A stretch of 64,000 nucleotides of DNA from an uncultured Rickettsiales bacterium (GCA_964645205.1 CAZYBO010000004.1:177623-241622), one strand, 5' to 3'; positions 12,504 to 64,000 are shown, numbered from the stretch's first letter. Made by a program: numbers and translations. The notes: generated from the letters alone by a model not told the origin.

Positions 12504-12507
12504 TAAT

Positions 12508-15330: not shown

Positions 15331-15336
15331 CCCAGC

Positions 15337-16716: not shown

Positions 16717-16737
16717 GGCGTCCGGCACGCCACTTAC

Positions 16738-17411: not shown

Positions 17412-17535
17412 AAGGGTGTGCTTTCTGCTTTAAAGGAGGTTAGCGAGCTATTGTGTCGTAACGCAGGATCGCGTATACTTCAATAGTTCGGGAATATAGA
17501 ACTATTAGGAAAAATGTCAAGAAGGGTATTGCGGC

Positions 17536-17898: not shown

Positions 17899-17902
17899 TC
17901 GC

Positions 17903-19306: not shown

Positions 19307-19507
19307 GGCGCCTTGTGTTTTATTGTATTATCTGTTCTTTTGCCCATCCTACTATCGGCGAGGGCTTGTCACAATCTTATTCCTTTGAGGAATTGGCAGT
19401 TAATTGAATATTAATCATTATGCGCAATAGCTAGTGGTATTATTTAGTTTCCGCCCATTATCGTGTAGGTCGGCAGAACATATCCGGGTTGAAATACGCC
19501 CGTAAAA

Positions 19508-20023: not shown

Positions 20024-20030
20024 TACCTAA

Positions 20031-20063
20031 AATGTCATCTTTCACGCCGTTGGGGATGACATT
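20031..20063. terminator. Hairpin between convergent genes (possible bidirectional terminator or short REP)
   Basis: AATGTCATC (20031-20039) and GATGACATT (20055-20063) form a perfect 9-bp inverted repeat with a 15-nt loop. It sits in the 41-bp gap between the PagL-like stop and the malate synthase stop. Confidence 0.45.
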
Positions 20064-20064
20064 A

Positions 20065-22600: not shown

Positions 22601-22613
22601 GTGATCTCCTTGC

Positions 22614-22619
22614 ATTATA
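22614..22619 (-). promoter_or_regulatory. Candidate -10 box (TATAAT) for pilin copy 1
   Basis: The minus strand reads ...GTGTAATAGCTAAAGTATAATGCAAGGAGATCACATG. This is a perfect TATAAT 14 nt upstream of the ATG region. No convincing -35 lies at 17-bp spacing. Confidence 0.35.
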
Positions 22620-22681: not shown

Positions 22682-23515
22682 TTAGAAGCTCGCGCGAACA
22701 AGCGCCTGGCAGAGGCGGTTGTTCTGCACGCCGTTCGAGGTGCCGGTGTTGTACACGGCGGCGGCGGACAAACAGTTCGCAGCGCCTGCGGTGGACACAT
22801 CGGTGTTGAGGTTAAAGTTCGCCGTGTTGTTGGTTGCCTGCACGGTACCGGTGTTCGGCACGCCATCATCCTTCTTGGTATCGATCTGGAAGGCTTCCAG
22901 CGGGGTCAGGTTCGAGGTGATCGTAGGCGTGCTGACGTTGGCCGCGAAAGTAACGCCTGCGATACGGAACACGTTCACGCCGGCCATGCCGGGATAGGTA
23001 AGCGTAGCGCCACCCGTGTAAGCCATGAGCAGGTTACCGTTGCCGATCTTGGCGGCGGGCAACGTGGTAGCTACCGGCATCGCAGCAGGCGTGCTGCTCG
23101 AAATGGACGCCGTGCTCGTCATCGGTTCGCTGATCAGGTTGGAAAGCGCAAGCTGGTGCCAGAAGGCGGCTACTTCACCCGATACCTGCACGCGCGTGCC
23201 GGCGAAATCGGTGAGGACGCCATCGCCTGCGATCATCGCGGCGTTACCGCCGGTGGGAACGCTGGCGGCAGCGAAGAAGCTCGTGCCGTTCTGGAGGTCG
23301 CCCGGCATGCCGTTATATTTGCTGCGGAACGTGTTTACCGCTGCGTCGTATTTTTCAATCTGCGAGACCATCGCGCGAATCTGCGCGGCCTTGATCAGAT
23401 CCTGACCGACCAGTACACCGCCTACGATCAGGCCGATGATAACGAGTACGATCGATAATTCGATAAGCGTGAAACCTTGCTGGCCTTGCTTGGTGGGGGA
23501 TGGGGTGGTCTGCAT
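22682..23515 (-). CDS. Type IV pilin / pseudopilin, copy 2 (mature protein identical to copy 1)
   Basis: MQTTPSPTKQGQQG|FTLIEL... From residue 4 onward it is the same as copy 1. The track start at 23563 adds 16 non-pilin residues. ATG 23515 is preceded by AGGAG. Confidence 0.9.
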   Translation of the reverse strand: MQTTPSPTKQGQQGFTLIELSIVLVIIGLIVGGVLVGQDLIKAAQIRAMVSQIEKYDAAVNTFRSKYNGMPGDLQNGTSFFAAASVPTGGNAAMIAGDGVLTDFAGTRVQVSGEVAAFWHQLALSNLISEPMTSTASISSSTPAAMPVATTLPAAKIGNGNLLMAYTGGATLTYPGMAGVNVFRIAGVTFAANVSTPTITSNLTPLEAFQIDTKKDDGVPNTGTVQATNNTANFNLNTDVSTAGAANCLSAAAVYNTGTSNGVQNNRLCQALVRASF

Positions 23516-23715
23516 TGTGGAAACTCCTAGGATGGTTAAATGACGTATCCGCACTAGTACCAAGCGCGCAACTAGCTATAGTTTCTAACATTTAAAGGTT
23601 ACTAAATGATTACCGTGCCGGGATGAAACAACTCGCAAACAGGCGATAATATCGAGCGAATACAGCTCGATACAAAACCTACATCCTGAAAACTATTTTT
23701 GGAGAGAATTATTTC

Positions 23716-28233: not shown

Positions 28234-29055
28234 ATGTCTTTTATCGTCGCCGCTTTTTATCATTTTTTCGACTTCCCCGATTATGCCGCACAGCAGAAGC
28301 CGCTGCTTGCTCTGCTGAAGTCGCACGAGATTAAAGGCTCGCTGCTCATCGCTGCCGAGGGGATCAACGGCACGCTGTCGGGCACGCGTGAAAATATCGA
28401 TGCGGTGCTGCGGCACCTCAAAACCACCATCACTAAAAACGATTTCGAGCATAAGGAAAGCCTGTGCGAAACCCAGCCCTTCAGACGCGCCAAGGTACGC
28501 CTGAAGAAAGAAGTGATCTCGCTGGGCGAACCGGTTTCGCCCGCACGCACAGGTACCTATATAGATGCAAAGGACTGGAACGCGCTGATCGCCGATCCGG
28601 AGGTTACCGTGCTCGATTCGCGCAACAGCTATGAGGTGCATCTGGGAACGTTCGCGCGCGCCATCGACCCGGATATTAAAAATTTCAAGCAGCTCCCCGC
28701 CTTTGTGCACGAAACCCTCGACCCCGCGCGGCATAAAAAGATCGCCACCTTCTGCACCGGCGGCATACGCTGCGAGAAATTTTCAAGCTGGCTGCTCGAC
28801 CAAGGATTTTCTGAAGTTTACCAACTCAAAGGCGGCATCCTTAAATATCTCGAGGAAATTCCAGAAGCGCAAAGCGCATGGCAGGGCGAGTGCTATGTTT
28901 TCGACGAACGTGTCGCCGTCGGCCACGGGCTTGCCCCCTCTTCCACCGCAAGCATGTGCCGCGCATGCGGGCATGCGCTTACGCAAGACGACCGCAAAAG
29001 CCCTCTATATATAGAAGACAAGCAATGTGGCCTCTGCGCGAGCGGGAAAAACTAG
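28234..29055 (+). CDS. trhO: Rhodanese-domain tRNA uridine(34) hydroxylase (TrhO/YceA, UPF0176)
   Basis: MSFIVAAFYHFFDFPDY...IAAEGINGTLSG...FCTGGIRCEKFS (rhodanese active-site Cys loop), and a C-terminal CxxC...C cluster. Confidence 0.85.
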   Translation: MSFIVAAFYHFFDFPDYAAQQKPLLALLKSHEIKGSLLIAAEGINGTLSGTRENIDAVLRHLKTTITKNDFEHKESLCETQPFRRAKVRLKKEVISLGEPVSPARTGTYIDAKDWNALIADPEVTVLDSRNSYEVHLGTFARAIDPDIKNFKQLPAFVHETLDPARHKKIATFCTGGIRCEKFSSWLLDQGFSEVYQLKGGILKYLEEIPEAQSAWQGECYVFDERVAVGHGLAPSSTASMCRACGHALTQDDRKSPLYIEDKQCGLCASGKN

Positions 29056-29981
29056 CGGGATAATTTAGGCAGCGCGTTGGTGCCGGGAGTCGAAGGCGGC
29101 AGCAGCGGCTCACGCATCGGGATATCGAGCAGCGTATCGTCCTGCTTGAACGGCACATGAAAATCCTTCGGCAATTGCAGGCCGGGCTTGCTCATGTCAT
29201 GCGCGGCGAATGCCACGCCCACCGCCGGGCCGTAGTCTTTTACATTGAAATTCCATTCGCTTTTCGCAGATTCGATCCTTGAGATGAATTCGCTCACTTT
29301 TGCTTTTCCGAAAGAAACATCCAGCGTGTCGTGCGCCCTCTTTTTCTCGGCTTCGCTGAAGGGTTTTCCTAATCGGTTGCCTAAGATGCTGCCGAGATTA
29401 TACGTCCCCTGCCCCGCGATGGTAACGCTCGGCACATAGCGGGTTTCATAATCCGTCATCAAATAATCGCTGAGCATGCGAACGCCGCTGAAGCCGTTGG
29501 TGAACTGCGCGTTCTTCGCCATGGTGGAAGTGATATTCATGACGTCTATATTATTGAAAGCCTCATTTCCCGTCGTCAGGTTCACATAGACTGTGCCCTT
29601 GGGAAGTTCCGCATTCGCCACGCCCTGCCCCGAGCCGGAATGACATGAAGTTGAGAAGATTTCGAAGCGGTTGGTGCCGCACGCCTTGGTCAATGCCGCG
29701 AACAGGTCGGAGGCCGGGGTATCGCAGGCTCCCGTAAGCCCCACGACATGCTTGCCGTTTTTCACGCCGCCATGCATATGGGTAAACACCAGCATAGGCT
29801 CCTTGATCGCAGCGGCGGCTTTGCCGATTTCATCCAGCGTGATGGCGCGCCGCGAATCGCCTACGCTCACCAGCTTGGCGCCCGCATCGCGGAAATGCCC
29901 TTCGATGGTTTTCATCTCTTCGGGATTCAACGCCGTACCGCCGGGCCCTACGAGATAAAGTATGGTTTTGGGTTCTGCCAT
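29052..29981 (-). CDS. Hypothetical protein with caspase-like (clan CD, C14-like) His/Cys dyad motifs
   Basis: 309 aa, no signal peptide. LVFTHMHGG (His-Gly) lies about 44 residues before FSTSCHSGSG, which resembles the metacaspase D-[AS]-C-H-S-G motif. The C-terminal ~150 aa are unassigned. The stop shares the CTAG at 29052-29055 with trhO. Confidence 0.55.
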   Translation of the reverse strand: MAEPKTILYLVGPGGTALNPEEMKTIEGHFRDAGAKLVSVGDSRRAITLDEIGKAAAAIKEPMLVFTHMHGGVKNGKHVVGLTGACDTPASDLFAALTKACGTNRFEIFSTSCHSGSGQGVANAELPKGTVYVNLTTGNEAFNNIDVMNITSTMAKNAQFTNGFSGVRMLSDYLMTDYETRYVPSVTIAGQGTYNLGSILGNRLGKPFSEAEKKRAHDTLDVSFGKAKVSEFISRIESAKSEWNFNVKDYGPAVGVAFAAHDMSKPGLQLPKDFHVPFKQDDTLLDIPMREPLLPPSTPGTNALPKLSR

Positions 29982-50987: not shown

Positions 50988-52886
50988 ATGACGACTTTGA
51001 CACTACATGTAGTTGGCATGGCTTACCGCTTACCCTCGAATTTGAATTTTGCCGCCCTACTCTGCTGCACATTGGCGAGCGTGGTTGCGCACCCCGTCGC
51101 TGCGGAGACGCTGATGTACGGCAAGAACGGCTCGGGGCGCTACGCCACCGGCAGCCGCACGGAACCGACCGACCCTTACGCCAACCCTTACCAGCAGCGC
51201 CGCGGCACCGCACGCGCGCAAGCGATCCAGAACCGTTACCCTTCCGCCACGCAGCAGCCCACACAAACGGCTTCCGCTGCACCTGCGCGCACGCCGTCAA
51301 CCCCGCTGAGAATTGTCGTACCCAACCTTGAAGCCGCACAGCAAAAGGGCGGCACCATGGTGCGGATGACGCCCGCTCCGCGCGTTTCAACGCCCGCGTA
51401 CCAACCGCCTCCACCTGTCGAAATAGCCAGCGCCGAACCGGTTATATCACCGCCGGAATATGGCGCCGCCGAACCGCGTTTCGTGGCCGATGCCGAACCG
51501 TCCGCGCCGCCGATTGAAAAATCCTTTGCCGCACCCAAACCGCTTTCGACCACTGCCGAATATAGCGCGCAGAGCGTGATGGCGCGCGCGGTGGCGCCGC
51601 TGATGAGCATTATCGCCAGCATCGCACCCGAATCACCCGCACCCGCTGTCAAAACCGCATCCGTGCAAATAGATCAGGCGGAGCAATTCGCCGCACTTGC
51701 GCCTGCCGCCGGTGAGCCTGCACCCACCGTACCGCTGATCGCAGCGCCACAACAACCTGCCGCTCCGACTCCTGAAGAAAAACCGGAAGCGCCGACCGCA
51801 CCGGTTCCTGCCGCACCGGTTGCACCAAAGGCACCTGAACCGAAAGCCGCGGCACCCGCGCCGGAACCTGTTGCACAACCTGCATCTGAGCCTGCCGCCA
51901 GCCCCGCCAGCGCCACGCTGGATGAAGCGCTGCAAACAGCCGCGCCGGAGCCTAAGGCCGAAACGCCGGTAGTGCCCAAGAAAAAACCGATGACGAAAAA
52001 AGAACCGGAAGCGCCGAAAGCCACTAAGGTTGCCGCGCCCGTCAAGCCGTTGATCGAAGAGCCCCCGGCGACCGAAGCGGCTGAAACGCCCAGTGAGCCT
52101 GCTCCCACCCTGAGCGCGGCCAGCAAAACCATCCTCGATAAAATCAACCCAAAGCCCGATGCACCGAAAAAAGGCAAGCACGAGCCGCTTTCCATCGACC
52201 GCGCCAAGGATACGCAGGAGATTTCCGAAGGATCCCCCGTCGCGGAGACCGCTTCGGTGCACCACGAATCCATGGGCATCAAGATCGAGGTGAAAAGCCG
52301 CCCGGTGAATTACGATTACGAGTTGGAAAAGGCTTATAACGCGCTTATCGCCGGGCAGACGGATGTAGCGGTCGCCATTTATAAATCCGTGCTCGAAAAC
52401 AACCCCTCCAACAAGGGTGCGCTATTTGGGCTGGCCACGACCTACCACCGCTCCGGGCAGATCGATATGGCGAGACCGTATTACGGAAAGCTGTTGTCGA
52501 TCGACCCGCAAAACCGCGACGGGCTGAATAATTTCCTCGTCCTGCTGGCCGATGAAGCGCCCGAAGAAGCCCTGTCGCAGATGGAAAAACTCGAGGCGAA
52601 AAACCCCGGCTTCAGCCCGATCCCGGCGCAAATGGCGATTATTTACCAGAAGCTCGGAAAAACAGAGCTGGCGGGTGAAAAAATGCTCAAGGCCATCACG
52701 TTGGCGCCGGAAAACCTGACTTATCGCTATAACCTCGCCATTATGCTCGATAAACAGCATAAATATGAGCAGGCGATGCCGCTGTACAGACAGCTTATTG
52801 AAGCACAGCAGCGCGGGGAAGCCATACCCGGTAATGTCCAGAAAATTCAGGAAAGATTAACCTTTATTAGCTCTAATAGACCCTGA
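50988..52886 (+). CDS. Secreted TPR-repeat protein with a long Pro/Ala-rich low-complexity linker
   Basis: Signal-like AYRLPSNLNFAALLCCTLASVVAHPVAAE (the true start may be ATG 51018). About 350 aa are P/A/E-rich. The C-terminal ~200 aa hold TPR-type repeats (AYNALIAGQTDVAVAIYKSVLENNPSN..., LAIMLDKQHKYEQAMPLYRQLI). It lies immediately upstream of pilT. Confidence 0.7.
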   Translation: MTTLTLHVVGMAYRLPSNLNFAALLCCTLASVVAHPVAAETLMYGKNGSGRYATGSRTEPTDPYANPYQQRRGTARAQAIQNRYPSATQQPTQTASAAPARTPSTPLRIVVPNLEAAQQKGGTMVRMTPAPRVSTPAYQPPPPVEIASAEPVISPPEYGAAEPRFVADAEPSAPPIEKSFAAPKPLSTTAEYSAQSVMARAVAPLMSIIASIAPESPAPAVKTASVQIDQAEQFAALAPAAGEPAPTVPLIAAPQQPAAPTPEEKPEAPTAPVPAAPVAPKAPEPKAAAPAPEPVAQPASEPAASPASATLDEALQTAAPEPKAETPVVPKKKPMTKKEPEAPKATKVAAPVKPLIEEPPATEAAETPSEPAPTLSAASKTILDKINPKPDAPKKGKHEPLSIDRAKDTQEISEGSPVAETASVHHESMGIKIEVKSRPVNYDYELEKAYNALIAGQTDVAVAIYKSVLENNPSNKGALFGLATTYHRSGQIDMARPYYGKLLSIDPQNRDGLNNFLVLLADEAPEEALSQMEKLEAKNPGFSPIPAQMAIIYQKLGKTELAGEKMLKAITLAPENLTYRYNLAIMLDKQHKYEQAMPLYRQLIEAQQRGEAIPGNVQKIQERLTFISSNRP

Positions 52887-52905: not shown

Positions 52906-54018
52906 ATGGAAATCACCGATCTCCTGATTTATACGGACAAGAATAAAGCGTCCGACCTTCACCTTTCTGCCACCAATCCCCCCATCCTGCGCATCCACGG
53001 GGAAATGGTGCCGTACCAGTCGCCCGCGCTCGGCGTGGACGATGTGAAGCGCATGCTCTATTCCATCATGACCGAGCAGCAGCGCTCCGATTACGAGCGC
53101 GATCTGGAAATCGACTTCGCGATTTCGTTCAGCAAGGAAATGCGTTTTCGCGTCAACGCGTTCAATACGCTAAACGGTCCTGCCGCCGTGCTACGTACCA
53201 TCCCCAACAAAATCCTTTCGCTTGAAGAGCTGGGCACGCCGGACGTACTGAAAAAACTCTGCCACCTGCATAAAGGCCTCATTCTCGTGACCGGCCCTAC
53301 CGGTTCGGGTAAATCGACGACGATGGCGGCCATGCTCGACTACGTAAACGCCAACGAAGCCAAGCACATCATCACCATCGAAGACCCGGTGGAATTCATC
53401 CACACCTCGAAAAAATCGCTGATCAACCAGCGCGAGGTGGGCAAGAACACCAAATCTTTCGCCAAGGCGCTGCGCAGCGCGCTGCGCGAAGACCCGGACA
53501 TCGTGCTGGTGGGCGAATTGCGCGACATCGAAACCATCCAGCTCGCGCTGACCGCCGCCGAAACGGGGCACTTGGTCATGGGCACGCTGCACACCAATTC
53601 CGCGCCTAAAACCATCGACCGTATCATCGACGTGTTCCCTGCCAACGACAAGGAAATGGTGCGCGCGATGCTGTCCGTATCGCTCGAAGGCGTCGTCACG
53701 CAGGCGCTGCTCAAGAAAAACGGCGGCGGCCGCGTAGCCGTGCACGAAATCATGCTGGGCACCGGCGCGGTGCGTAACCTGATCCGCGAAGGCAAGGTAC
53801 CGCAGCTATTCTCCATCATGCAATTGGGCAGCAAGCTCGGCATGTGCACGATGAAAGACAGTATCTACGGATTGCTGGAAAAGAATATCATCACCGAAGA
53901 AGTCGCACGCAGCGCGCTCGCCAGCAGTTCCAGCGACGATTCGGAAGAAGGCGCGCAATTGCCCGGCAATAAACGTCCCGGCGGCGGTTCCGCAGCCAAG
54001 TCCGCACATTCATTCTAG
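52906..54018 (+). CDS. pilT: Type IV pilus retraction ATPase PilT
   Basis: Walker A GPTGSGKST, Asp box, AETGHLVMGTLHTNSA, and the PilT-type N-terminus DLHLSATNPPILRIHG. Confidence 0.9.
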   Translation: MEITDLLIYTDKNKASDLHLSATNPPILRIHGEMVPYQSPALGVDDVKRMLYSIMTEQQRSDYERDLEIDFAISFSKEMRFRVNAFNTLNGPAAVLRTIPNKILSLEELGTPDVLKKLCHLHKGLILVTGPTGSGKSTTMAAMLDYVNANEAKHIITIEDPVEFIHTSKKSLINQREVGKNTKSFAKALRSALREDPDIVLVGELRDIETIQLALTAAETGHLVMGTLHTNSAPKTIDRIIDVFPANDKEMVRAMLSVSLEGVVTQALLKKNGGGRVAVHEIMLGTGAVRNLIREGKVPQLFSIMQLGSKLGMCTMKDSIYGLLEKNIITEEVARSALASSSSDDSEEGAQLPGNKRPGGGSAAKSAHSF

Positions 54019-54027: not shown

Positions 54028-55167
54028 ATGAGCGTCAACACCGAAGCCATGATTCAGGATTTTATCGATAAGGATGCCACCGACCTTTACCTGACCGTGG
54101 GCGCGCCGCCTTCTTTACGTTTCGGCAACCGCATCGAGCCTTATAACAACCAGAAACTGACCGAGGCCGACATACGCGAAATCCTGCCTGCGCTGGTCAG
54201 CAGCGACGTCATCGACGAATTTGAATCCACGCTCGAATTCAACACGGCGGTATACTGGAAAAATATCGCGCGTTTCCGCATCAATATCTTCCGCCAGCGC
54301 CAGAATACCGGCCTCGTCATCCGCCGCATCCAGACGAACATCCCTACCCTCGCCTCGCTCGACCTGCCGAAAATCTACGAAGAGCTTATCATGGAAAAGC
54401 GCGGGCTGATCCTGCTGGTCGGGCAAACCGGCGCGGGCAAATCCACTTCGCTGGCTGCCATGCTTGAGCACCGCAACACGCACGGACAGGGTCATATCGT
54501 CACCATCGAAGACCCGATCGAATTCATCCTGAGCCACAAGAACTGCATCATCACCCAGCGCGACGTGGGTATCGACACCTACTCGTTCAGCATCGGGCTG
54601 AAGAACACGCTGAGGCAAACGCCGGACGTCGTGGTCATCGGTGAAATCCGCGATCGCGAAACTATGGAACACGCCATCGTATTCGCGGAAACGGGGCATC
54701 TGTGCCTTGCCACCCTGCACGCCAACAACGCGAATCAGGCCATCGAGCGCATCATCAATTTTTTCCCGGAAGAAAAGCACAAGCAGGTGCTCGCCAACCT
54801 ATCGATGAATCTCAAGGCTATCCTGTCGCAGCGCCTCGTGCCCAACACGAAGGGCGCGCGCAGCATCGCGCTGGAAATCATGATCAACCAGGGGTTGATC
54901 CGCAGCCTGATTCAGGAAGGGCGCGTGAAAGAAATCAAGGATCTGATCGAGCGCGGGCAAGACGAAGGCATGCAGACCTTCGACCAGAGCCTACTTACCC
55001 TGTTCATCGCGGGGCTTATCACCGAAGAGGCCGCTCTCGCGGAATCCGACAACCCGGCGAACTTACGACTGGCGATAAAGCAGCTTGAGATGAGCAAGCG
55101 CGTAACCGGCGCGTCACCCGCAGCGCCCATGACGACCATGGGCAATTCCAGCAAGCAGCAATTTTAA
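54028..55167 (+). CDS. pilU: PilT-family ATPase, PilU-like
   Basis: GQTGAGKSTS, AETGHLCLATLHANNA. A second PilT paralog directly after pilT, as in pilT-pilU pairs. Confidence 0.8.
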   Translation: MSVNTEAMIQDFIDKDATDLYLTVGAPPSLRFGNRIEPYNNQKLTEADIREILPALVSSDVIDEFESTLEFNTAVYWKNIARFRINIFRQRQNTGLVIRRIQTNIPTLASLDLPKIYEELIMEKRGLILLVGQTGAGKSTSLAAMLEHRNTHGQGHIVTIEDPIEFILSHKNCIITQRDVGIDTYSFSIGLKNTLRQTPDVVVIGEIRDRETMEHAIVFAETGHLCLATLHANNANQAIERIINFFPEEKHKQVLANLSMNLKAILSQRLVPNTKGARSIALEIMINQGLIRSLIQEGRVKEIKDLIERGQDEGMQTFDQSLLTLFIAGLITEEAALAESDNPANLRLAIKQLEMSKRVTGASPAAPMTTMGNSSKQQF

Positions 55168-55169: not shown

Positions 55170-55910
55170 TTAGGCCGCCGCTTCCAGCCTGCCGCCCTGA
55201 ATGGAGCGCAAGAAGGCTTTCTCCAGCAAGGTTTCCTTATATTTTTCCTTAAACGTCGCAGGTGTGCCGATGAAGAACAGGCGGCCTTCGTGAATCACGC
55301 CGATGCGGTCGCAGATTTCATCGATGTCGGCAAGGATGTGCGAGCTGAAGAATACGGTTTTGCCCTTCTTGCGGTTGGCGAGCAGCATGTCTTTCAGCTT
55401 GATACGCGCACTGGGATCAAGACCGCTCATCGGCTCGTCGAGTATCAGCAGCGACGTGTCCACCATGAACGCCCCCAGCAACCCGAGCTTTTGCCCCATC
55501 CCTTTTGAATAGGAACCGACACGCGCGGAAAGCACGCGCGGGTCGAGGTCGAGTGCTTCGGCCAGCGATTGCGCCAGCGACGTATCGAGTTTTTTTCCAT
55601 AGTATGACAGCGCGAGATCGAGATATTCCATGCCCTTCAAATAGCGCGACGGCTGGAATTTTTCCGGCAGGTAGGACAGTTTGCTGCGCGCACGCAAATC
55701 GGTCGTCGGCACGCCGAACAGGTGTGCGCTCCCCGAATCCGCCTTCACGAGGTCGAGCAGGATTTTGATCATCGTGGTCTTGCCTGCGCCGTTTACGCCG
55801 ATCAACCCGAAAATCTCGCCGGGCATCAGCGCAAGGTCGATGCCTTCGAGCACTTTGCGCGTGCCATAGGATTTATGGATCGATTGTATGGAGATAGGCG
55901 ATGCCGTCAT
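55170..55910 (-). CDS. ABC transporter ATP-binding protein (ABC-2/CcmA-like) with no adjacent permease
   Basis: Walker A GVNGAGKTT, signature-like YSKGMGQKL, Walker B LLILDEPMSGLD, H-loop SSHIL. It starts 13 nt after the upstream pilus-operon gene and ends 2 nt from the pilU stop. Confidence 0.85.
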   Translation of the reverse strand: MTASPISIQSIHKSYGTRKVLEGIDLALMPGEIFGLIGVNGAGKTTMIKILLDLVKADSGSAHLFGVPTTDLRARSKLSYLPEKFQPSRYLKGMEYLDLALSYYGKKLDTSLAQSLAEALDLDPRVLSARVGSYSKGMGQKLGLLGAFMVDTSLLILDEPMSGLDPSARIKLKDMLLANRKKGKTVFFSSHILADIDEICDRIGVIHEGRLFFIGTPATFKEKYKETLLEKAFLRSIQGGRLEAAA

Positions 55911-55922
55911 GAATAGTTCCTT

Positions 55923-56780
55923 TTAGTCCTGGCTCTCAAGTTTCTTGTAGGAGTTTATCAGGCCGCCAAGACCGGTGTTATCGGCATCCTCGCCACTTTC
56001 GGCGCTCGCGGCTTCAGGCGCGGCCTGCGGCTCTTTTTTTGGTTTGGCGCCTCTGGCATGCTGCAATTCCACCGTCACCGGCACCACTTTGCCTTCCAGT
56101 ACCCGCATAACATAAGATGAGAACGTCTGGTTGTGGCGCAGTGTGAAGGTGACCGTGCCCTGCGCGTCGTCCACACTGACGGATTCGGTTGGCGATATGT
56201 CCCATACTTCGTTGATTTTTTCCATGTCCACCGGACGCCACACGATGGTAACCTTGTCGCGGTCGATCGCCTCAACCTGAATGTCGGCGCCTTGTTTGGG
56301 CGTAGTCGGAAGGATTTTCTGGCCGTTTATCCATACCACCCAATCGTTGGGCGAGTGATACACCAGCGATTCAAGATAAAGCTGCGGATACGTGAAGTAT
56401 TTCTTCGCGACTTCATCCGGCTTCAACCCCTTCAACTCATCTTCCTGCTCTCCTTCACCGATTGAGCCGCTGAAGCCAACCTGATTCTGGTAGGACTGAA
56501 TAGCGGTGCGTATCAAGGCAAGCTCCTTGCCGCTGAAGAAAAGGCTGTTGGACGCAGATGGCTCTTCCTGCGCGTTCGCGGGCGGGAATAATGTCGCCAT
56601 CTGTTCGATAGGGGACGGTTCTTCGGTTTTCCTGCGGATTACCGCGCCAGCGGCACCGGCTGCGTCATCTAACGCCTCATCCGATTCCGACAACTCAAAC
56701 GCCGTGGCCGTTTGCACAGGCAAACTCGCCATTGCAAGCGCAACACACAGGATGAGCATATACGGTTCCCGGTGCGTCAT
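55923..56780 (-). CDS. Secreted hypothetical protein; positional PilP/GspC-like candidate
   Basis: Signal peptide MLILCVALAMASLPVQTATA, then an acidic linker, then a beta-rich core (WVVWINGQKILPTT...IQVEAIDRDKVTIVWRP). The ATG overlaps the upstream stop (ATGA). The functional call rests on gene position and architecture only. Confidence 0.4.
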   Translation of the reverse strand: MTHREPYMLILCVALAMASLPVQTATAFELSESDEALDDAAGAAGAVIRRKTEEPSPIEQMATLFPPANAQEEPSASNSLFFSGKELALIRTAIQSYQNQVGFSGSIGEGEQEDELKGLKPDEVAKKYFTYPQLYLESLVYHSPNDWVVWINGQKILPTTPKQGADIQVEAIDRDKVTIVWRPVDMEKINEVWDISPTESVSVDDAQGTVTFTLRHNQTFSSYVMRVLEGKVVPVTVELQHARGAKPKKEPQAAPEAASAESGEDADNTGLGGLINSYKKLESQD

Positions 56781-57424
56781 TGCGGTTTCTGTCCTTGCGG
56801 CGCCGGCGGCTCTACGGTTTTGATACCGTACCAGACCAGCTTCATTTCACCCTTGATCAGCGGCAATTTTCCGGTTTTCGCGATGGTATTCAGCATTTCA
56901 TCGGTGAGTTTCTGCGTGCGTTCAAGGCGCATCGCCGTGATTTTAACCGCACCGGACATCTCCTTGTCGATCGCACCCAGCAACTCATACACGTCCTCGT
57001 CCGTCAACGCTTCGAAGCTCAGTTGCACATCGCTGGCAACAATGCTGCTGTTCTTGAGCTTCGGATTCGTAGTCTCCATCTCAGGCGTCACGGTGAGCGA
57101 CAGGTTGTTGAGGAAATAACGGTTCTTGAAAATCTCGAATTTTTTCCGGGACGCCTGACGATTGATCGCCAGTTCGTTATTGGCGTTTTTGGTACGGATT
57201 TCCTCGTAAAGCTCCATATTGCCCTGCACCTTGGAATATTTGGTACGCAGGTCGTTCATCTGGGAGCTTATCATTGCAATTTCGTTATCCAGCACCTGTT
57301 TCTGCTGCACGTAATCCTCAGACATCATCGTGGCATAATACGTGCCGCCGCCCAGCGCCGAAATCGCCACCACCAGTATGGCGGCTTCTTTGATCAGTCG
57401 TTTCCTGACGTCCTGATACTTCAT
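56777..57424 (-). CDS. Bitopic membrane protein with a coiled coil; positional PilO/GspM-like candidate
   Basis: 215 aa: a short cytoplasmic N-terminus, the TM segment AAILVVAISALGGGTYYA, a coiled-coil region, and a C-terminal alpha/beta domain. It overlaps both neighbours by 4 nt. Confidence 0.4.
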   Translation of the reverse strand: MKYQDVRKRLIKEAAILVVAISALGGGTYYATMMSEDYVQQKQVLDNEIAMISSQMNDLRTKYSKVQGNMELYEEIRTKNANNELAINRQASRKKFEIFKNRYFLNNLSLTVTPEMETTNPKLKNSSIVASDVQLSFEALTDEDVYELLGAIDKEMSGAVKITAMRLERTQKLTDEMLNTIAKTGKLPLIKGEMKLVWYGIKTVEPPAPQGQKPQ

Positions 57425-59133
57425 TTGGGCGCCCCTTTCGCCGACAGCACGGCAAAATCAGGCAGCATGTCGCCCTTGATCACCATCTGAATATCCAGCG
57501 TCTTGCCTTGCGGCGCAGCGTTTCCGGTGGGATTGAAGCTGATTTCGAGCTTGGCGTCGTCTTTCAACTCCGCCGGGATATTGCCGTAGCTGACGTCATA
57601 GCCTTTGAATACGTCTTTATACGCGTTGAGCACCTTGTTCAGCATGTCCCTGAGTTCCGTGGGATCGCTGGTTTTGCTGACGAATATAAGGTTAAGCGTC
57701 ACGCCCATTTTCACCTTGGCTCCCGGCGGTGTGGGAGGCGATTCGGCCTTGATCGGCGTGCCGTCGCCCAGCACCCAGTCGATGCTCTTGATGGTAACGG
57801 GCAATTGCTTGAGGGTAAGCACCGCATGCACCAGCGGCATGGGAGACAGGCGCTCTTTCTGGAGCATCTGGTATAGGTCGATCAGGTCGCTGACCTTATC
57901 CACATCGAGGTTGGAGTTTTTAATGTCCTGCTCAAGCCGACTCTTGGCCTGGGTCTGCGACTGCTTGGTTTCCTCAAGCGCTGAAATATCCTGAGACACT
58001 GAGAACATGGAAAACGCCTCATACCCGGCATAGAGGATAATCAGCAGCGCGATCAGCGCGGCGGCTATTTTCTGGGTGGAGAGTATCTGGAAATAACTGT
58101 CCAGCTTGCGCGTTTGCACGGTGGTGAGCTTGAGCACGTGCTGCTTGCTGCACCCGATGCTGGCGGCGAGGATCACGTCGCCGAACTGGTCGGTGGGCTG
58201 CGTAGCGCCCTCGATGCCGAGATGCTGCGCCACTTCAAACGGCGTCATGACGTGGCAGCCGCGCGCCTCGAACTTGGCGCCGTCGATAAACGGCTTGATA
58301 CCACCGGCAGCAATAACATACACGTCCAGCCCGTCCTCGGGCTTGAAGGAAAGACGGCGGACATATTCAAGCGTGGTGGTGATTTCCTGCTCGATATTCC
58401 CTGCAACCACTTCGGGATTGGTCTCCGCCATCGGCTGCGCGAGGCGGGTGAACACGATGCGGCCGTTGCGCAGGATCACCTGCCGGAATCCACCCACCTT
58501 GTTGTGGCTGACGAAGAATTTCCACTGCGCGCTGGTTTCTTCCTTGGGCAGCGCCATGGCGCGCTCAAGATTTTTTATGAGTACTTCCGTTTCCACCGAC
58601 ACGAGATAGATGCCATAGAAGCGGTTAGGCACGGCCTCCGCAAAATCGAGCCATACCGCCATGTGCGGGCTGCGCTCCAGCGAGATCATCAGGAAGTTCC
58701 AATCCTTGCGGCCGTTCTCTTCTCGGCCGAGCAGCACTGAGCCCTTGATGGCATCGCGGCCGAAATCGCGGTCGAGGCGGGTTTTGATGAGCTTGTTGAC
58801 GCTGAGCTTGCTGACCGGCGGCAGCGTATGCTGCACATAGGTCTGATCCATGCTGTCGACTACCATCATCAACGGCGCGTTCACGTCGGCTTCCATCACC
58901 GCTGCCAGTTCGTCGAGGCTTGCCTTGCCGGAATCCGGCACGAAATGGCGGCTGCGCACCACATTGCCGTCGATATGCACCAGTATCGCGCCCTCGTCGC
59001 CGACCAGCAGCACGAAACGCGTGCCCTTCGAAGCGCGGAAGCCTTTGCGTTTCGAAGACGCCTCCGCGCGCGGCTTCTTGAGCCTGGCGACCTTGGGCGG
59101 TTTAATCGTAGAGCGTTTAATCTTCAGAGCCAT
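57421..59133 (-). CDS. 570-aa bitopic protein; GspL-like or PilM-PilN-fusion-like candidate
   Basis: A ~340-aa cytoplasmic domain, one TM (KIAAALIALLIILYAGYEAF), a coiled coil, and a ~150-aa periplasmic domain. This is the architecture of GspL or of a PilM+PilN fusion, and it lies directly after pilC. I could verify no sequence motif by eye. Confidence 0.4.
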   Translation of the reverse strand: MALKIKRSTIKPPKVARLKKPRAEASSKRKGFRASKGTRFVLLVGDEGAILVHIDGNVVRSRHFVPDSGKASLDELAAVMEADVNAPLMMVVDSMDQTYVQHTLPPVSKLSVNKLIKTRLDRDFGRDAIKGSVLLGREENGRKDWNFLMISLERSPHMAVWLDFAEAVPNRFYGIYLVSVETEVLIKNLERAMALPKEETSAQWKFFVSHNKVGGFRQVILRNGRIVFTRLAQPMAETNPEVVAGNIEQEITTTLEYVRRLSFKPEDGLDVYVIAAGGIKPFIDGAKFEARGCHVMTPFEVAQHLGIEGATQPTDQFGDVILAASIGCSKQHVLKLTTVQTRKLDSYFQILSTQKIAAALIALLIILYAGYEAFSMFSVSQDISALEETKQSQTQAKSRLEQDIKNSNLDVDKVSDLIDLYQMLQKERLSPMPLVHAVLTLKQLPVTIKSIDWVLGDGTPIKAESPPTPPGAKVKMGVTLNLIFVSKTSDPTELRDMLNKVLNAYKDVFKGYDVSYGNIPAELKDDAKLEISFNPTGNAAPQGKTLDIQMVIKGDMLPDFAVLSAKGAPK

Positions 59134-59213
59134 GATGTCATCGTGCCTGACGCTGTATATATTGACTATATAGCATGGTTTGAGGCGTGGTCATGCGAAA
59201 CCTTTGTATCATG

Positions 59214-60416
59214 CTAGAATTTCACCTTGCTGAACGATTCGTAAAGCGGGCCGAATACGGCGGCGATCACCCAGAAAATCATCAAGCCCATCACCACGGT
59301 CAGGATCGGCTGGATAGCGCCGACCATCGCTTCCACCGCATCGTTCACTTCGCGGTGGTAGAAGAAGTTGATGTTCTCCAGCGCTTCCGTCATGTTGCCG
59401 CTATCCTCACCGACCTTGAACATACGCACGACGAGGTTGGGAAACTGGTTGGAAAGGCGCAGGCTGGCGGTCAGCGAGTTGCCTTCCATCACGTTGGTTT
59501 TCACAAGGTCGACCGAATCGCGCAGGATACGGTTGCTGACCACGGTTTTGCCGCCTTCCAGCGATTCGAGTATGTCGATGCCGCTGTTGAACATCACCGC
59601 GAAAAAGTGCGTAAAGCGCGCCATGTCGATCTTGCGCGTGACCGGGCCGATGAGCGGCACTTTCAGGATCAGCGCATCTATTTTGTAAGCAAAGGGTTCC
59701 GAGGTTCTGTACAGGGTAAGGATCGTCATGATCAGCAGCACAGGCGTGCCCATGATGATGTACCAGTAATTCTCGAACGCCCACGACACCGAGATCAGCG
59801 CGCGCGTGTGGATGGGAAGGCCGTAGCCCTGCCCCATGATGAAATCCACCAGCTTCGGCACAACCGCCATCATCAGCGTGGCGATCACCGCGAAAATCAC
59901 CACCAGCAGCACGATAGGGTAGCGCGTGGCTTTCTTAATCTTGCGACGGATTTCCTCAGACCATTTCAAATGGTCGGCAAGGTGTAGAAACGATTCGGAA
60001 AGGTTACCCGTTCTCTCGCCGGTTTCGACCAGTCCTACGAACACGTTGTTGAAAATACGCGGATAAGCGGCCAGCGCCTTCGACAGCATGTTGCCGTTCT
60101 TCACCCCTTCGTACACGCCCGTCATCACGTCGCGCAGCTTGGGTGATTCGCTGGAATCGCGCACGTCAGCCAGCGCGTCGTGCAGCGGCACGCCTGCGCG
60201 GTTGAGTTGCTCCAGATGCATGCACAGGATGATAAGGTCTTTTGTTTTCACCTTGGCGAAGCGCGAGGTTTTCTTCTGCTTCACTTCTCTTGCGGAAATC
60301 AGGTCGAGGCCGATCTGCTTTAGGCGTTCCTCAAGGTCAAGCTCGTTGTCGGCGACCACCACGCCGCGCATTTTCCGTCCCGCATTGTTGATCGCCGTGT
60401 AATTGAATGCGGGCAT
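59214..60416 (-). CDS. pilC: Type IV pilus / T2SS platform protein (GspF/PilC family)
   Basis: 400 aa with two T2SSF repeats and 3 TM segments (...LSKALAAYPRIFNNVFVGLVETGERTGNL...; ...LTASLRLSNQFPNLVVRMFKVGEDSGNM...). Confidence 0.88.
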   Translation of the reverse strand: MPAFNYTAINNAGRKMRGVVVADNELDLEERLKQIGLDLISAREVKQKKTSRFAKVKTKDLIILCMHLEQLNRAGVPLHDALADVRDSSESPKLRDVMTGVYEGVKNGNMLSKALAAYPRIFNNVFVGLVETGERTGNLSESFLHLADHLKWSEEIRRKIKKATRYPIVLLVVIFAVIATLMMAVVPKLVDFIMGQGYGLPIHTRALISVSWAFENYWYIIMGTPVLLIMTILTLYRTSEPFAYKIDALILKVPLIGPVTRKIDMARFTHFFAVMFNSGIDILESLEGGKTVVSNRILRDSVDLVKTNVMEGNSLTASLRLSNQFPNLVVRMFKVGEDSGNMTEALENINFFYHREVNDAVEAMVGAIQPILTVVMGLMIFWVIAAVFGPLYESFSKVKF

Positions 60417-60422
60417 GGGAGC

Positions 60423-62249
60423 TTACAACCTGTCGGTTAAGTCAATGGTGTTGATAAGTTCTTTCAGGTTGATGTCGCCCGCGAGCACTTTGTTGATGCC
60501 ATCTTGCGCCATGGTCACAAAGCCGTTGGCCGTCGCGTAATCCAGCATGGCGCGCTTGGTGGCGTGCGTGGAAATCAGCTCGTCCAGCCCACGGTCAATG
60601 CGCAGCACTTCCACGATGCCGGTACGCCCCTTAAAGCCTTTGTTGTTGCACTTCTCGCAGCCATGCGGCTCGTAAATCGTCGGTGGCTTGGACGCATCCA
60701 CGCCCAAAATTTTGCATTCCTCCGCCGAGGCGGTGTAAGGTTTTTTGCAGCTTTTGCACAGCTTGCGCGACAGGCGTTGCGCCAGCACGCCGATGAGCGA
60801 ACCCGCCAGCAAGTGCGCAGGCACGCCGATATCGCCCAGTCGCGGAATCGCGCCCAGCGCGTCGTTAGTGTGCAGCGTGGTGAACACCTGGTGGCCGGTG
60901 AGCGCGGCGCGCACGGCCATCAGCGCCGTGTCCTCGTCGCGCACTTCGCCGATGAAGATAATATCAGGATCCTGGCGCATCAGGGATTTGATGCCGTTGG
61001 AGAAATCCATGCCCGAGCCTTCGCGCACGTTGCTCTGGCGGATCAGCGGCAGCTGGTATTCCACCGGATCTTCCAGCGTCATGATGTTGGTATCGATGTC
61101 GTTGATGTAGCTCAGGATCGAGTACAGCGTTGTCGTTTTACCCGAACCCGTGGGGCCGGTCACGATGATGATGCCTTCGGGACGCTTCAGCAGCAGCTTG
61201 AGTACGGAATCGTTATGGTCGGAGAAGCCGAGGCTCGCCAGCGGCACCAGCGATTTCGCTTTGTCGAGCAGACGCATCACGATGTTTTCGCCGTACACGG
61301 TCGGCTGGGTAGCGACGCGGAAATCCACTTCGCGGCCAAGCACGTTGTAGGAAATGCGCCCATCCTGCGGGTTGCGGGTTTCGGCGATGTTCATGCCCGC
61401 CATGATCTTGATACGCACCGCCATCGCAGACCAGTAGTCGCGGTGGAACGAGCGAATCTGCACCATCTGCCCGTCGATGCGGTAGCGCAGGCGCAGGAAC
61501 GAGCCTTCCGGCTCGAAATGGATGTCCGACGCACCGGATTTGATCGCATCCACCAGCAGCGCGTTGACAAGGCGCACGGTGGGGTTGACGTAGCCTTCCT
61601 GCCGTCCGTCCAGCTTCGCGTTTTCGCGGATGCCGGTTTCGATTTCGCGCAAGATGCCGTCCACCGAAATTTCGTAGTCGTAATACTGGTCGATCAGTTC
61701 GAGGATTTCTGACTCGGTGCAATAGATCGGCACGATCTTGGTGCTGCGCGGCACGTGCCTGCGCACCTGGTCGATGGCAAGCACGTTATACACGTCCGCC
61801 ATGGCGAGCTTGAGCACGTCGTTTTCGTAGCTGACCGGGATGACCTTATGGCGCGCGGCGATTTCCTTCGGCACGCGGCGCACCACGGCGGAATCGAGCA
61901 TGCTTGATTTGGGATCGAATTTCTGGGTGCCGGACGATTCGGCGAGGATTTCGCCGAGCGCGCTTTCGGTGATGAATCCCATATCGACGAGAATCGCACC
62001 GAATAATTTCTTGGCGGTTTTCTGTTCGGTCAGCGCAATCTGCAGCTGATCCTGCGAGATCAGCCCGAGCGCGATCAGCTTTTCGCCCAACCGCAACGGA
62101 CGCGCCTGAGTGACGAGCGCTGGCGCTTCGCCGTCCACAGTTTCAGGAACCGCACCCGCCGGAGGATTGTCGGAGACGTTGCCCGCTTCGGGACCTGTTA
62201 CTTCCTTGGCCATCGCCTCGTCTGCCGGTTTCTGTTTTCCTGCCTTCAT
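60423..62249 (-). CDS. pilB: Type IV pilus assembly ATPase (GspE/PilB family)
   Basis: N-terminal T2SSE_N-like domain, Walker A GPTGSGKTTT, ALTGHQVFTTLHTND, and the tetracysteine motif CKSCKK...CEKCNNKGFKGRTG. Confidence 0.9.
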   Translation of the reverse strand: MKAGKQKPADEAMAKEVTGPEAGNVSDNPPAGAVPETVDGEAPALVTQARPLRLGEKLIALGLISQDQLQIALTEQKTAKKLFGAILVDMGFITESALGEILAESSGTQKFDPKSSMLDSAVVRRVPKEIAARHKVIPVSYENDVLKLAMADVYNVLAIDQVRRHVPRSTKIVPIYCTESEILELIDQYYDYEISVDGILREIETGIRENAKLDGRQEGYVNPTVRLVNALLVDAIKSGASDIHFEPEGSFLRLRYRIDGQMVQIRSFHRDYWSAMAVRIKIMAGMNIAETRNPQDGRISYNVLGREVDFRVATQPTVYGENIVMRLLDKAKSLVPLASLGFSDHNDSVLKLLLKRPEGIIIVTGPTGSGKTTTLYSILSYINDIDTNIMTLEDPVEYQLPLIRQSNVREGSGMDFSNGIKSLMRQDPDIIFIGEVRDEDTALMAVRAALTGHQVFTTLHTNDALGAIPRLGDIGVPAHLLAGSLIGVLAQRLSRKLCKSCKKPYTASAEECKILGVDASKPPTIYEPHGCEKCNNKGFKGRTGIVEVLRIDRGLDELISTHATKRAMLDYATANGFVTMAQDGINKVLAGDINLKELINTIDLTDRL

Positions 62250-62382: not shown

Positions 62383-64000
62383 TTACGCGGCGGAGGTGCG
62401 CCACTGCAACTGGCGCAGGCAGGCATCGACCCATTGCGCGGTCAGTTTTTCCTGTACGGAATTTTGTTTCAGCCGTTCGTTCAAATGTGGCCACGATACG
62501 CTGTCAAGCAATTGATCCTGATTGAAGCAGGAGTAGACATACGTCTCTTTGCCGGTAACCGGATCGACATGTTTCTGCAGGCATTGTGCGCAGATTTCCT
62601 TCATCATGCACTGCATCGGCGAGTTGATGCTGCCGATCGCCACGTGCAACGGGTTGAGCTGTGGCGCGAGCACGCCATGGCGCGCGGATGCCACCGCTGC
62701 CATCATGCGGTCGGAACCGATGGCAACGATACGCTGCACGGCAAACAACGGAATGGCGGGATCTTTTTCCCCATAGGCGCGGATGGCTTCTACGATATTG
62801 CCATGGAAGGAGCTGTCCTGCGGGCGGCGGGCGGGGAGTTTGGCCTCATCGCAGCACCACACGATTACATCGGCGGCCGCTTCAATATCGTCGATTTTAT
62901 AGCGGTCGGACGCTTTTTTATAGCCCGCGAAATAGAGCACTTTTGAGCCTTTTGCACGCAGCGCCTTGCCTATGGAAAACAGCACCGCGTTACCCAGTCC
63001 GCCGCCAGCAAGCAGCACGGTTTCGTTGGCATGGATTTCGGTGGGCATTCCCGTCGGCCCCATCAGAATCACCGGTTCATCCGGCTTCAAAAACGCGCAC
63101 AAATCCGATGATCCGCCCATTTCCAGCGCAATCACCGACACCAGTCCCTTTTTCTTATCCACCCATGCACCGGTCATAGCGAGACCTTCCATGGCTAAAG
63201 TCGTGCTGAGCGTTGAGCATTGAACTTTAGGTGCAAAGGCCTCGAAATTCTGCAAACGATAAAATTGCCCCGGCTGGAATGCTTGTGCAGCCAACGGCGC
63301 GTGCAGCACCACTTCCACGATGTTCGACGTCAGCCGGTTGACCGCATGCACCTTTGCGCGCAACTGCTGGTTAATGGATTGTAAAAACTCATGACCCGTG
63401 ACCCGTGCCCCATGTGCTCTCTTCGCCAACACTGCCGAAACCGCAGGGTATCCCTGCTTCGCGCTGCCCATCGCCTTCACTACATTGCCCGCGAATGACG
63501 GGTGCAGATCGCCGAAAAAGCTCACCGCGCGGCCTTCTTTGTCGATCGACATCAACACCTGCGGCACGGACGGTTTCGCGCTGCGCTCCGGTTTTACCGG
63601 GGTTCCGTTTTCATCAACGGCACGGAAATATTTTCCGTCGAGCGTGAAATGCTCGGGATCTTCGCGTTGCAACACGGTGTTGGGGTTGGTGCCGGCGGCA
63701 ATCAAAATCGTGCGCGCAGGCACGGTGACCGCCTCGTTTTCCGTCCCCGCTTTTTTCAGCACGATGGCTTTCGCATGGCCTCGCGCATCCACTTCAACCG
63801 CTTTCGGCTCATAAAGTTCGGCGAAGAAAATCCCCTCCTCCAGTGCTTTTTCCACTTCTTCATGGTTGAGTCGGTAGCTCGGCGCGTCGATCATGCGTTT
63901 GCGGTACACCAGCTTGACGCCCCCCCAGCTATCGAGCAGCGACCATACGTCCGGCTGCGGTTTTTTCTTTTCTTCGATAATCGCGCGGCCATGCGCGAGG
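62383..64000 (-). CDS. Large flavoprotein oxidoreductase, N-terminus outside the window: pyridine-nucleotide-disulfide-oxidoreductase-like part fused to a PyrK/FNR-like domain with a C-terminal Cys cluster
   Basis: The reading frame stays open to the window edge (I checked codons 63910-63999 and found no stop). The C-terminal half reads ...VNRLTSNIVEVVLHAPLAAQAFQPGQFYRLQNFE...LLAGGGLGNAVLFSIGKAL...CMMKEICAQCLQKHVDPVTGKETYVYSCFNQD, an FNR-like fold plus a 2Fe-2S-like motif as in PyrK/GltD-related proteins. Confidence 0.6.
   Translation of the reverse strand, partial: LAHGRAIIEEKKKPQPDVWSLLDSWGGVKLVYRKRMIDAPSYRLNHEEVEKALEEGIFFAELYEPKAVEVDARGHAKAIVLKKAGTENEAVTVPARTILIAAGTNPNTVLQREDPEHFTLDGKYFRAVDENGTPVKPERSAKPSVPQVLMSIDKEGRAVSFFGDLHPSFAGNVVKAMGSAKQGYPAVSAVLAKRAHGARVTGHEFLQSINQQLRAKVHAVNRLTSNIVEVVLHAPLAAQAFQPGQFYRLQNFEAFAPKVQCSTLSTTLAMEGLAMTGAWVDKKKGLVSVIALEMGGSSDLCAFLKPDEPVILMGPTGMPTEIHANETVLLAGGGLGNAVLFSIGKALRAKGSKVLYFAGYKKASDRYKIDDIEAAADVIVWCCDEAKLPARRPQDSSFHGNIVEAIRAYGEKDPAIPLFAVQRIVAIGSDRMMAAVASARHGVLAPQLNPLHVAIGSINSPMQCMMKEICAQCLQKHVDPVTGKETYVYSCFNQDQLLDSVSWPHLNERLKQNSVQEKLTAQWVDACLRQLQWRTSAA

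Follow-up and report, generated by a model that had tools for sequence, protein, structure and literature searches.

What kind of machine is encoded by six adjacent genes on the minus strand of an uncultured Rickettsiales bacterium? The genes lie in a 64 kb stretch of DNA (GCA_964645205.1 CAZYBO010000004.1:177623-241622), here called the window, and specify an extension ATPase (E) and an inner-membrane platform protein (F) of the type IV filament superfamily, three proteins without family-model matches (X1, X2 and X3) and an ATP-binding cassette (ABC) ATPase. We consider it likely that their products make up the core, in the inner membrane and the cytoplasm, of a machine for a retractile type IV pilus, and that this machine is confined to one clade of uncultured Alphaproteobacteria. 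A first-pass annotation of the sequence had offered two explanations, a diverged system of type IVa pilus (T4aP) and type II secretion system (T2SS) descent with a remodelled alignment subcomplex, and a new filament type without a secretin. The former is in keeping with our results, in that no curated equivalog model captures E, F or X1–X3; the latter is not. Absences from this genome that are reported below refer to the 64 kb of the window.

The operon and its conserved core

From upstream to downstream the operon comprises E (60423..62249, 608 residues; PilB/MshE/GspE class), F (59214..60416, 400 residues; PilC/MshG/GspF class), X1 (57421..59133, 570 residues), X2 (56777..57424, 215 residues), X3 (55923..56780, 285 residues) and the ABC ATPase (55170..55910, 246 residues), all on the minus strand. 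Gaps of 6 nt and 80 nt separate E from F and F from X1; X1 and X2, like X2 and X3, overlap by 4 nt, and X3 is 12 nt from the ABC ATPase gene. Our open reading frame (ORF) calls agree with the first-pass coordinates and spacing of these six genes, although the convergent pilU, pilT and tetratricopeptide repeat (TPR) genes next door had been left out of that list.

We collected 59 related loci, whose public records are labelled Rickettsiales or Alphaproteobacteria bacterium, and annotated them locally; each neighbour count refers to those with enough sequence. X2 follows X1 without exception (54/54 loci), as does X3 after X2 (46/46), and the ABC ATPase gene follows X3 in 41 of 42, the only exception being L033. 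F lies upstream of this block in 36/43 loci, E in 26/34, and PilU/PilT lie downstream in 19/27. In the most divergent loci, L056–L059, in which X1 is 27–28% identical, the X1-X2-X3-ABC quartet is intact, whereas E/F and pilT/U no longer adjoin it and the flanks are unrelated housekeeping genes. We conclude from these loci that the conserved unit is the quartet and not the six-gene block first described: across genomes the quartet is nearly invariant, but E and F are less constant. The numbers of X1, X2 and X3 homologues (given below) and the recurrence of the gene order in 59 independent loci also show that the genes are real and not chance ORFs.

X1, X2 and X3 as a probable remodelled alignment subcomplex

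Searches of Pfam, NCBIfam, PADLOC and PDB sequences gave nothing significant for X1, X2 or X3, and the PilM_2, PilN, PilO and PilP models match neither these proteins nor their homologues, so that the separate PilM, PilN, PilO and PilP of a T4aP are not recognised here. The trio had been described as unassignable and its absent signatures taken as a sign of novelty. The lack of family-model matches stands, but two of the three nevertheless appear to be assignable, and canonical proteins fare little better: in a Pfam control, Aeromonas MshI and MshK have no match, MshI2 reaches 29 bits on PilN, and MshJ 23 bits on PilO/T2SSM. Since proteins of the mannose-sensitive haemagglutinin (MSH, MSHA) pilus are themselves barely recognised, missing signatures are to be expected of alignment proteins and are no evidence of a new kind of machine.

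More than 281 homologues of X1 were found, all unannotated and all from metagenome-assembled genomes of uncultured Alphaproteobacteria or "Rickettsiales". An AlphaFold2 model built from 63 homologues (mean predicted local distance difference test score, pLDDT, 84.5) shows an N-terminal tail that is basic and disordered, an actin-like α/β domain on the cytoplasmic side (residues ∼38–330), a single very long helix (339–406) with a hydrophobic, transmembrane (TM) segment, and a C-terminal periplasmic domain (∼432–555) whose DSSP string gives the order α-β-β-α-β-β. PilN, PilO, EpsL and EpsM have periplasmic domains of this (αββ)×2 topology. Foldseek comparison with the PDB places the N-terminal domain in the actin-like fold of PilM, GspL and FtsA: the best match is Pseudomonas aeruginosa PilM (5eou_B, E 6.8e-12), and PilM of Thermus thermophilus and of Myxococcus xanthus, FtsA and the cytoplasmic domains of GspL/EpsL (E ∼1e-8) match as well, all with probability 1.00; the entries matched include 2ych_A (3.4e-10), 3jc8_Ma and 4pht_Y (9.9e-9). 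Because the model matches both PilM and GspL and has a PilN-type C-terminal topology, X1 is, by its fold, a PilM–PilN fusion, arranged as in GspL, which bears out the first guess from its topology. MshI of Vibrio cholerae is likewise a fused PilM–PilN-type protein. Over the 63 homologues 41 residues are invariant; the cytoplasmic domain is strikingly conserved, with a GDEG motif at its first hairpin, and these invariant positions, GDEG included, suggest that this domain is under constraint from interactions or from nucleotide binding.

X2 has a TM segment (∼14–34), a coiled coil and a C-terminal α/β domain. An exhaustive HMMER search gives a family of 521 cluster representatives of uniform length; a word-indexed search recovers X2 alone, and the protein is a fast-evolving one. 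In hhalign, the profile of the X2 family matches the C-terminal half of X1 with a probability of 75% and an E of 2.5e-5; the alignment covers the coiled coil next to the TM segment and the first part of the X1 periplasmic domain, and this relationship looks like the paralogy between PilN and PilO or between GspL and GspM. Pfam T2SSM weakly matches 2 of 54 X2 members (best E 8e-4), and hhalign found no match of X2 to single GspM or MshJ sequences. More generally, family profiles aligned against single sequences of Escherichia coli GspL, GspM, GspC and GspB and Aeromonas MshI, MshJ and MshK gave nothing, single-sequence templates being of low power. The first-pass comparison of X2 with PilO/GspM is thus plausible; that of X3 with PilP/GspC is plausible on weaker matches.

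For X3, 32 homologues were detected. X3 combines a signal peptide or an anchor with a Pro/Ala linker that is disordered, a conserved helix (84–101), a β-domain (128–238) and a conserved C-terminal amphipathic helix. Most of the protein is disordered in the AlphaFold2 model (mean pLDDT 68.5), in which the β-core at ∼128–238 reaches ∼90, and the first six strands of this core resemble the HR domain of PilP, GspC and GspB. Foldseek found nothing in the PDB below an E of 1e-3; its weak top matches include Dickeya dadantii GspB (4wfw; E 0.05, 30% identity over 50 columns, root mean square deviation 2.8 Å) and Neisseria meningitidis PilP (2ivw; E 0.1). The commonest weak Pfam match is T2SSB, in 3 of 95 members of a mixed X1 and X3 set in which the matching members were not distinguished (best E 0.009). 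With modest confidence, we regard X3 as probably a periplasmic adaptor of the PilP/GspC/GspB class with an HR domain. The HR domain of GspB, which is structurally related to GspC and PilP and absent from the GspB of E. coli K-12, binds the secretin N0 domain, and GspB has as its partner a pilotin or the ATPase GspA (PMC9239104).

Motor proteins and pilins

The type IV filament superfamily is represented by all of its hallmarks in the window, a T2SSE ATPase, a T2SSF platform protein and pilins with class III signal peptides. E scores 411.6 bits on Pfam T2SSE and 60.1 bits on MshEN; F, with its two repeats, scores 168.3 bits on T2SSF. An MshE-type motif for binding cyclic di-GMP (c-di-GMP) occupies residues 53–104 of E (NCBIfam NF053729, 60 bits against a curated cutoff of 38), and an MshEN domain follows at 111–193. 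Residues 53–76, RLGEKLIALGLISQDQLQIALTEQ, fit the published 24-residue MshEN motif. The MshEN domain is found in some PilB proteins too and is therefore not exclusive to MSH systems. In MshE, binding of c-di-GMP through such a domain couples the nucleotide to assembly of the MSHA pilus (PMC4624765).

Directly downstream of the operon, and convergent with it, a plus-strand trio that is syntenic in relatives encodes an exported TPR protein (50988..52886), the retraction ATPase PilT (52906..54018) and a PilU-like retraction-type ATPase (54028..55167). PilT and PilU score 472.1 and 417.6 bits on NCBIfam TIGR01420 pilT_fam, above its cutoff of 319.1, so that the retraction ATPases that characterise a T4aP are both present.

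Two tandem prepilin genes on the minus strand (21767–22615 and 22682–23563) encode the candidate major pilin and lie 32 kb from the operon, as first noted. Both products exceed the cutoffs of Pfam N_methyl and NCBIfam TIGR02532, with the motif ...QQG/FTLIELSIVLVIIGLIVGG and a mature protein of ∼260 residues. The genes form a head-to-tail direct repeat with 915-nt spacing and 99–100% identity, and the proteins differ only in the leader region; this near identity suggests that the genes were duplicated very recently or are still undergoing gene conversion. In L016, L030, L045 and L058 the genes of orthologous pilins lie no more than 10 kb from the block. L058 is the relative that diverges most; there the quartet is flanked by five pilin-like genes (812–2606 and 14466–17392), one encoding 428 residues, and a gene near the quartet (4290–5804) encodes a 504-residue ankyrin-repeat protein, which hints at a eukaryote-associated lifestyle.

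The ABC ATPase

The first-pass annotation had noted the ABC ATPase as a component and left it at that. It is, however, the most tightly linked and the least explained part of the locus, and its novel element. It is bound to X1–X3 more closely than E and F are, and it diverges more slowly, its phmmer score in the most divergent loci being ∼50% of the self-score compared with 5–15% for X1–X3. In related loci its gene frequently overlaps X3 by 4 nt, and this recurrent overlap of start and stop codons indicates that the two are translationally coupled. The Walker A, signature, Walker B and H-loop motifs are all intact. The protein scores 74.8 bits on Pfam ABC_tran and, below cutoff in both cases, 151 on NCBIfam drrA and 132 on GldA; its nearest relatives in the PDB are the nucleotide-binding domains of ABCA, TM0544 (1vpl), Rv1218c and NosF. 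These matches point to the ABC-2/type V exporter class.

The gene could be a passenger, a housekeeping transporter subunit that shares the operon and has no part in the pilus, but we think this unlikely. Its sequence is indeed that of an ordinary ABC-2-class nucleotide-binding domain, the block holds no permease or other transporter part, and L033 does without it. A passenger would nevertheless hardly be expected to follow X3 in 41 of 42 loci, including the most divergent ones with unrelated flanks and neither E/F nor pilT/U adjacent, or to show such frequent start/stop overlaps.

Precedents suggest what the ATPase may do instead. The pilGHI genes, of which pilH encodes an ABC ATPase, occur within T4aP clusters of Deltaproteobacteria, where pilus biogenesis is believed to require them (PMC6060248), and HR proteins of the GspB type act with a cognate ATPase, GspA, whose MSH counterpart is MshM (PMC9239104, PMC6668835). 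By analogy, we infer that the ATPase most likely either energises an unlinked ABC-2 exporter required for pilus biogenesis, as may be the case for M. xanthus PilGHI, or takes over from the GspA/MshM ATPase, the partner of GspB-type proteins when the secretin is assembled. A bolder proposal, which we hold only tentatively and judge somewhat unlikely, is that the quartet marks a distinct alphaproteobacterial branch of type IV filaments whose alignment and assembly platform has an ABC-type ATPase built in as its fourth subunit. The PilM-like domain of X1 may be where such a subunit docks, or the subunit may stand in for the GspA/MshM AAA+ ATPase in placing the secretin; if the proposal is true, pilus biogenesis would gain a third step that is driven by ATP and differs in mechanism.

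Placement among type IV filaments

E and F fall under the equivalog cutoffs of PilB/PilC as well as of GspE/GspF: E scores 507.9 bits on NCBIfam GspE (cutoff 630.25) and 502.9 on PilB (TIGR02538, cutoff 675.65), and F scores 306.5 on GspF (cutoff 424). The best PDB matches of E are PilF/PilB (405 bits; T. thermophilus PilF and M. xanthus PilB), followed by GspE (377) and BfpD (124). We also compared both proteins with a small local reference set. By phmmer, the best member of the E family scores 379 bits on Aeromonas MshE (AcMshE), 365 on a T2SS-like E from Skermanella (SkE), 335 on EcGspE, 325 on NgPilF and 277 on HofB; the best member of the F family scores 205 on MshG, 193 on SkF, 172 on GspF and 120 on HofC. 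By blastp, E of the window gives 340 bits on SkE and 336 on AcMshE, and F gives 188 on SkF, 186 on AcMshG, 168 on EcGspF and 103 on HofC. A neighbour-joining tree of the ATPases with five references answers in part where the PilB-like protein belongs: the family is monophyletic in 100/100 bootstraps, but no sister group is supported, MshE being the best at 22/100. From its sequences, the clade appears to branch off deeply and on its own within the T4aP/MSH/T2SS group, with a slight lean towards MSH.

Two of the reference records are labelled as plasmids and are whole chromosomes, largely unannotated: L064 (NZ_AP026896.1; Aeromonas caviae, 4.9 Mb) and L066 (NZ_CP119142.1; Neisseria gonorrhoeae, 2.2 Mb), a trap for plasmid statistics. 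All tblastn matches in plasmid records were below 40% identity.

The resemblance to the MSHA pilus of Vibrio and Aeromonas goes beyond the c-di-GMP-binding N-terminus of the ATPase. The PilM–PilN-type protein can be fused there, being split as MshI/MshI2 in Aeromonas; the order mshI-J-K-(L)-M, that is I-J-K-(L)-ATPase, parallels X1-X2-X3-ABC; and the TPR protein has a possible counterpart in MshN. Aeromonas MshE, MshG and MshL head the phmmer lists for the E family, the F family and the secretin of one relative, although the T2SS references score only a little lower and the grouping has no support in the tree. MSH pili are retracted by PilT/PilU encoded outside the msh operon. In contrast to an MSH locus, neither the window nor any of the 59 loci has a homologue of MshM (AAA_22), the place of which is taken by the ABC ATPase, and X1–X3 have no detectable sequence similarity to MshI, MshJ or MshK. 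An MSH system is defined by mandatory mshA, mshE, mshG, mshL plus mshM, almost always in a single locus that includes the pilins and that never contains the prepilin peptidase; here the locus likewise has no prepilin peptidase, but it also lacks the secretin and the pilins, and MSH has not been reported in Alphaproteobacteria (PMC6668835).

With the T4aP of P. aeruginosa and M. xanthus the locus shares a PilB-like ATPase, PilC, PilT, PilU, a multi-locus organisation, the best fold match of the X1 N-domain (PilM) and, with pilH as the precedent (PMC6060248), an ABC ATPase gene in a pilus cluster. It differs in that PilM and PilN are fused, that the PilM/N/O/P family models do not match, that PilB is under its cutoff, that the ABC ATPase has no PilG/PilI-like partners, and that the pilin has a longer leader (∼14 residues) and is unusually large.

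A T2SS, or a T2SS-like endopilus machine in which a short pseudopilus pushes folded proteins through a secretin, has several points in its favour, but we regard it as distinctly unlikely. GspE and GspF are the best NCBIfam models for E and F; X1, like GspL, is a fused L-type protein, next to an M-like partner; there are weak matches to T2SSM and T2SSB; and a candidate HR-domain protein beside an ATPase gene recalls GspB-GspA (PMC9239104). The closest match to E from a cultured organism, and its top blastp match, is the ATPase (39% identity) of a T2SS-like megaplasmid cluster in the alphaproteobacterium Skermanella mucosa (L067, pSM-1, 10193–21401), where an A24 peptidase gene is followed by E, F, three pseudopilins, a fused 'PilN domain' L-like protein, GspM, a hypothetical protein and GspD. 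All T2SS equivalog scores are, however, under the curated cutoffs, and the window contains neither a GspG–K pseudopilin set nor GspD. The cytoplasmic domain of X1 is larger than that of GspL and aligns better with full PilM, by both TM-score and E-value, and the ATPase next to X3 is of the ABC type, not an AAA+ GspA. The pilin has ∼260 residues compared with ∼140 for GspG, and its similarity to the GspG/H models is confined to the N-terminal helix. The genes pilT and pilU are adjacent and syntenic, and T2SSs are not known to use retraction ATPases. The retractile pilus is preferred to a T2SS because of the syntenic pilT/pilU, the pilin of ∼260 residues and the absence of GspG–K; we take the locus to be a clade-specific, MSH/T2SS-leaning variant of such a pilus.

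The route through the outer membrane

LptF/G and PagL are encoded in the window, which marks the organism as a diderm. Profile scans of the larger ORFs with Pfam and NCBIfam, phmmer searches of ORFs of at least 60 residues and tblastn found no secretin, prepilin peptidase or GspA/MshM in the window, and two pilin genes but no minor-pilin set, which confirms the first-pass account of what the 64 kb lacks. From this had come the idea of a secretin-independent, previously undescribed filament subtype. In such a machine, passage across the outer membrane would depend on X3, the ABC ATPase and the TPR protein instead of a secretin. The idea could draw further on the lack of a nearby secretin in 58 of the 59 related loci, on the separate clade formed by the ATPases and on an obligatory ABC ATPase that has no counterpart in canonical models. 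The absence, however, holds for the window, and T4aP genes are typically scattered over several loci (PMC6668835), which makes absence from a single locus uninformative.

One relative, moreover, has a secretin in place. In L017, whose X1 is 46% identical, a gene for a 689-residue secretin lies directly after the ABC gene and convergent with it, where pilU sits elsewhere. It scores 107.8 bits on Pfam Secretin and, among NCBIfam models, best on TIGR02519 MshL (201.7 bits, cutoff 250.2), ahead of GspD (131) and PilQ (112); phmmer gives the same impression (AcMshL 101, HofQ 63 and GspD 46 bits), so that it resembles MshL and not the GspD of a T2SS. A lipobox-like sequence, LIGSC, suggests that it is probably a lipoprotein.

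The TPR protein also argues for a secretin. TPR proteins beside pilus genes are usually secretin pilotins or stabilisers, such as PilF, PilW, Tgl and TadD. That of the window matches TPR Pfam families, scores 51.9 bits on NCBIfam PilW, under the cutoff of 154, and has weak similarity to Aeromonas MshN (blastp E 2e-6), which makes it a candidate secretin-assembly or stability factor of the PilF/PilW/Tgl/MshN/TadD kind. A Pro/Ala/Glu-rich low-complexity region of ∼400 residues separates its signal sequence from the C-terminal TPR repeats; this region is highly variable in length, and the orthologues range from ∼470 to 825 residues.

Given the L017 secretin, an X3 whose best weak matches are the N0-binding HR domains, the PilW/MshN-like TPR protein and the scattering of T4aP genes, we infer that a secretin encoded elsewhere in this genome is far more likely than a secretin-less machine, which we consider very improbable. 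Two other possibilities were dismissed: a Tad or type IVb system, because E scores 124 bits on BfpD compared with 405 on PilB and there is no TadB/C architecture, and a defence system, because X1–X3 have no PADLOC matches.

A model for the machine and its implications

In the retractile pilus machine that we propose, a c-di-GMP-sensing ATPase of the PilB/MshE type would act through the PilC-type platform to polymerise the ∼260-residue pilin encoded 32 kb away, and PilT and PilU, encoded convergently next door, would retract the pilus. The motor would be held in place by a remodelled alignment subcomplex of rapidly evolving forms of the standard scaffold proteins, in which X1 would join a cytoplasmic PilM-like actin fold to a PilN-like TM and periplasmic part, X2 would be its PilO/GspM-like partner, and X3 would serve as a periplasmic adaptor whose HR-type β-domain contacts the N0 domain of the secretin. 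The ABC ATPase, apparently coupled to X3 in translation, would be the fourth obligatory member of this module. Genes for the minor pilins, the prepilin peptidase and the secretin, which is MshL-like in one relative, would lie elsewhere. Of all this, the gene content, the fold of X1, the conserved synteny and the c-di-GMP motif are shown by the data, and the roles of X2, X3 and the ABC ATPase, like the use of a secretin in this genome, are proposals.

Several observations weigh against this model. The assignment of X3 is built on sub-threshold matches (Foldseek E 0.05–0.1; T2SSB E at least 0.009) and that of X2 on sequence comparison. E and F score marginally higher on the GspE/GspF models than on those of PilB/PilC. 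No ABC-2 permease gene lies within ∼10 kb in any of the 59 loci, which leaves the exporter idea without direct support. Finally, the secretin, PilD and minor pilins were not found within the 64 kb covered, and a secretin is nearby in only 1 of the 59 related loci.

For basal Rickettsiales and uncultured Alphaproteobacteria related to them, type IV pili have been inferred as ancestral organelles of attachment and motility (PMC9352585, PMC10847448). The genes used there were confined to the recognisable core, and placing three widespread "hypothetical" families (>281, 521 and 32 members) in the pilus alignment complex would make it possible to build models that detect such systems better in these lineages. 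That an ABC ATPase is so strictly conserved, with no permease in its vicinity, raises the question of how and why a third kind of ATPase is wired into a type IV filament machine, and the answer may bear on the long-unexplained requirement for PilGHI in Myxococcus.

Other features of the window

Scans for promoters and terminators gave results no better than chance expectation. Six ORFs of 200–467 residues have no Pfam or NCBIfam match (17903–19306, 2075–3073, 3579–4439, 12908–13642, 17440–18042 and 29052–29981). Upstream of E, at 62383–63909, lies the C-terminal part of a protein of ∼1150 residues with RP005_N and Pyr_redox_2 domains (glutamate-synthase-β-like); its gene holds the same position in several relatives (3270–6822 in L006/L007), where it is preceded by sulfate-assimilation genes. 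At the opposite end, positions 1–2050 have a GC content of 0.476 compared with 0.55–0.61 elsewhere; they include a gene for a trypsin-like peptidase (832–1899) and end with a tRNA-Ser gene (1961–2050), and this low-GC segment may be the edge of an island.

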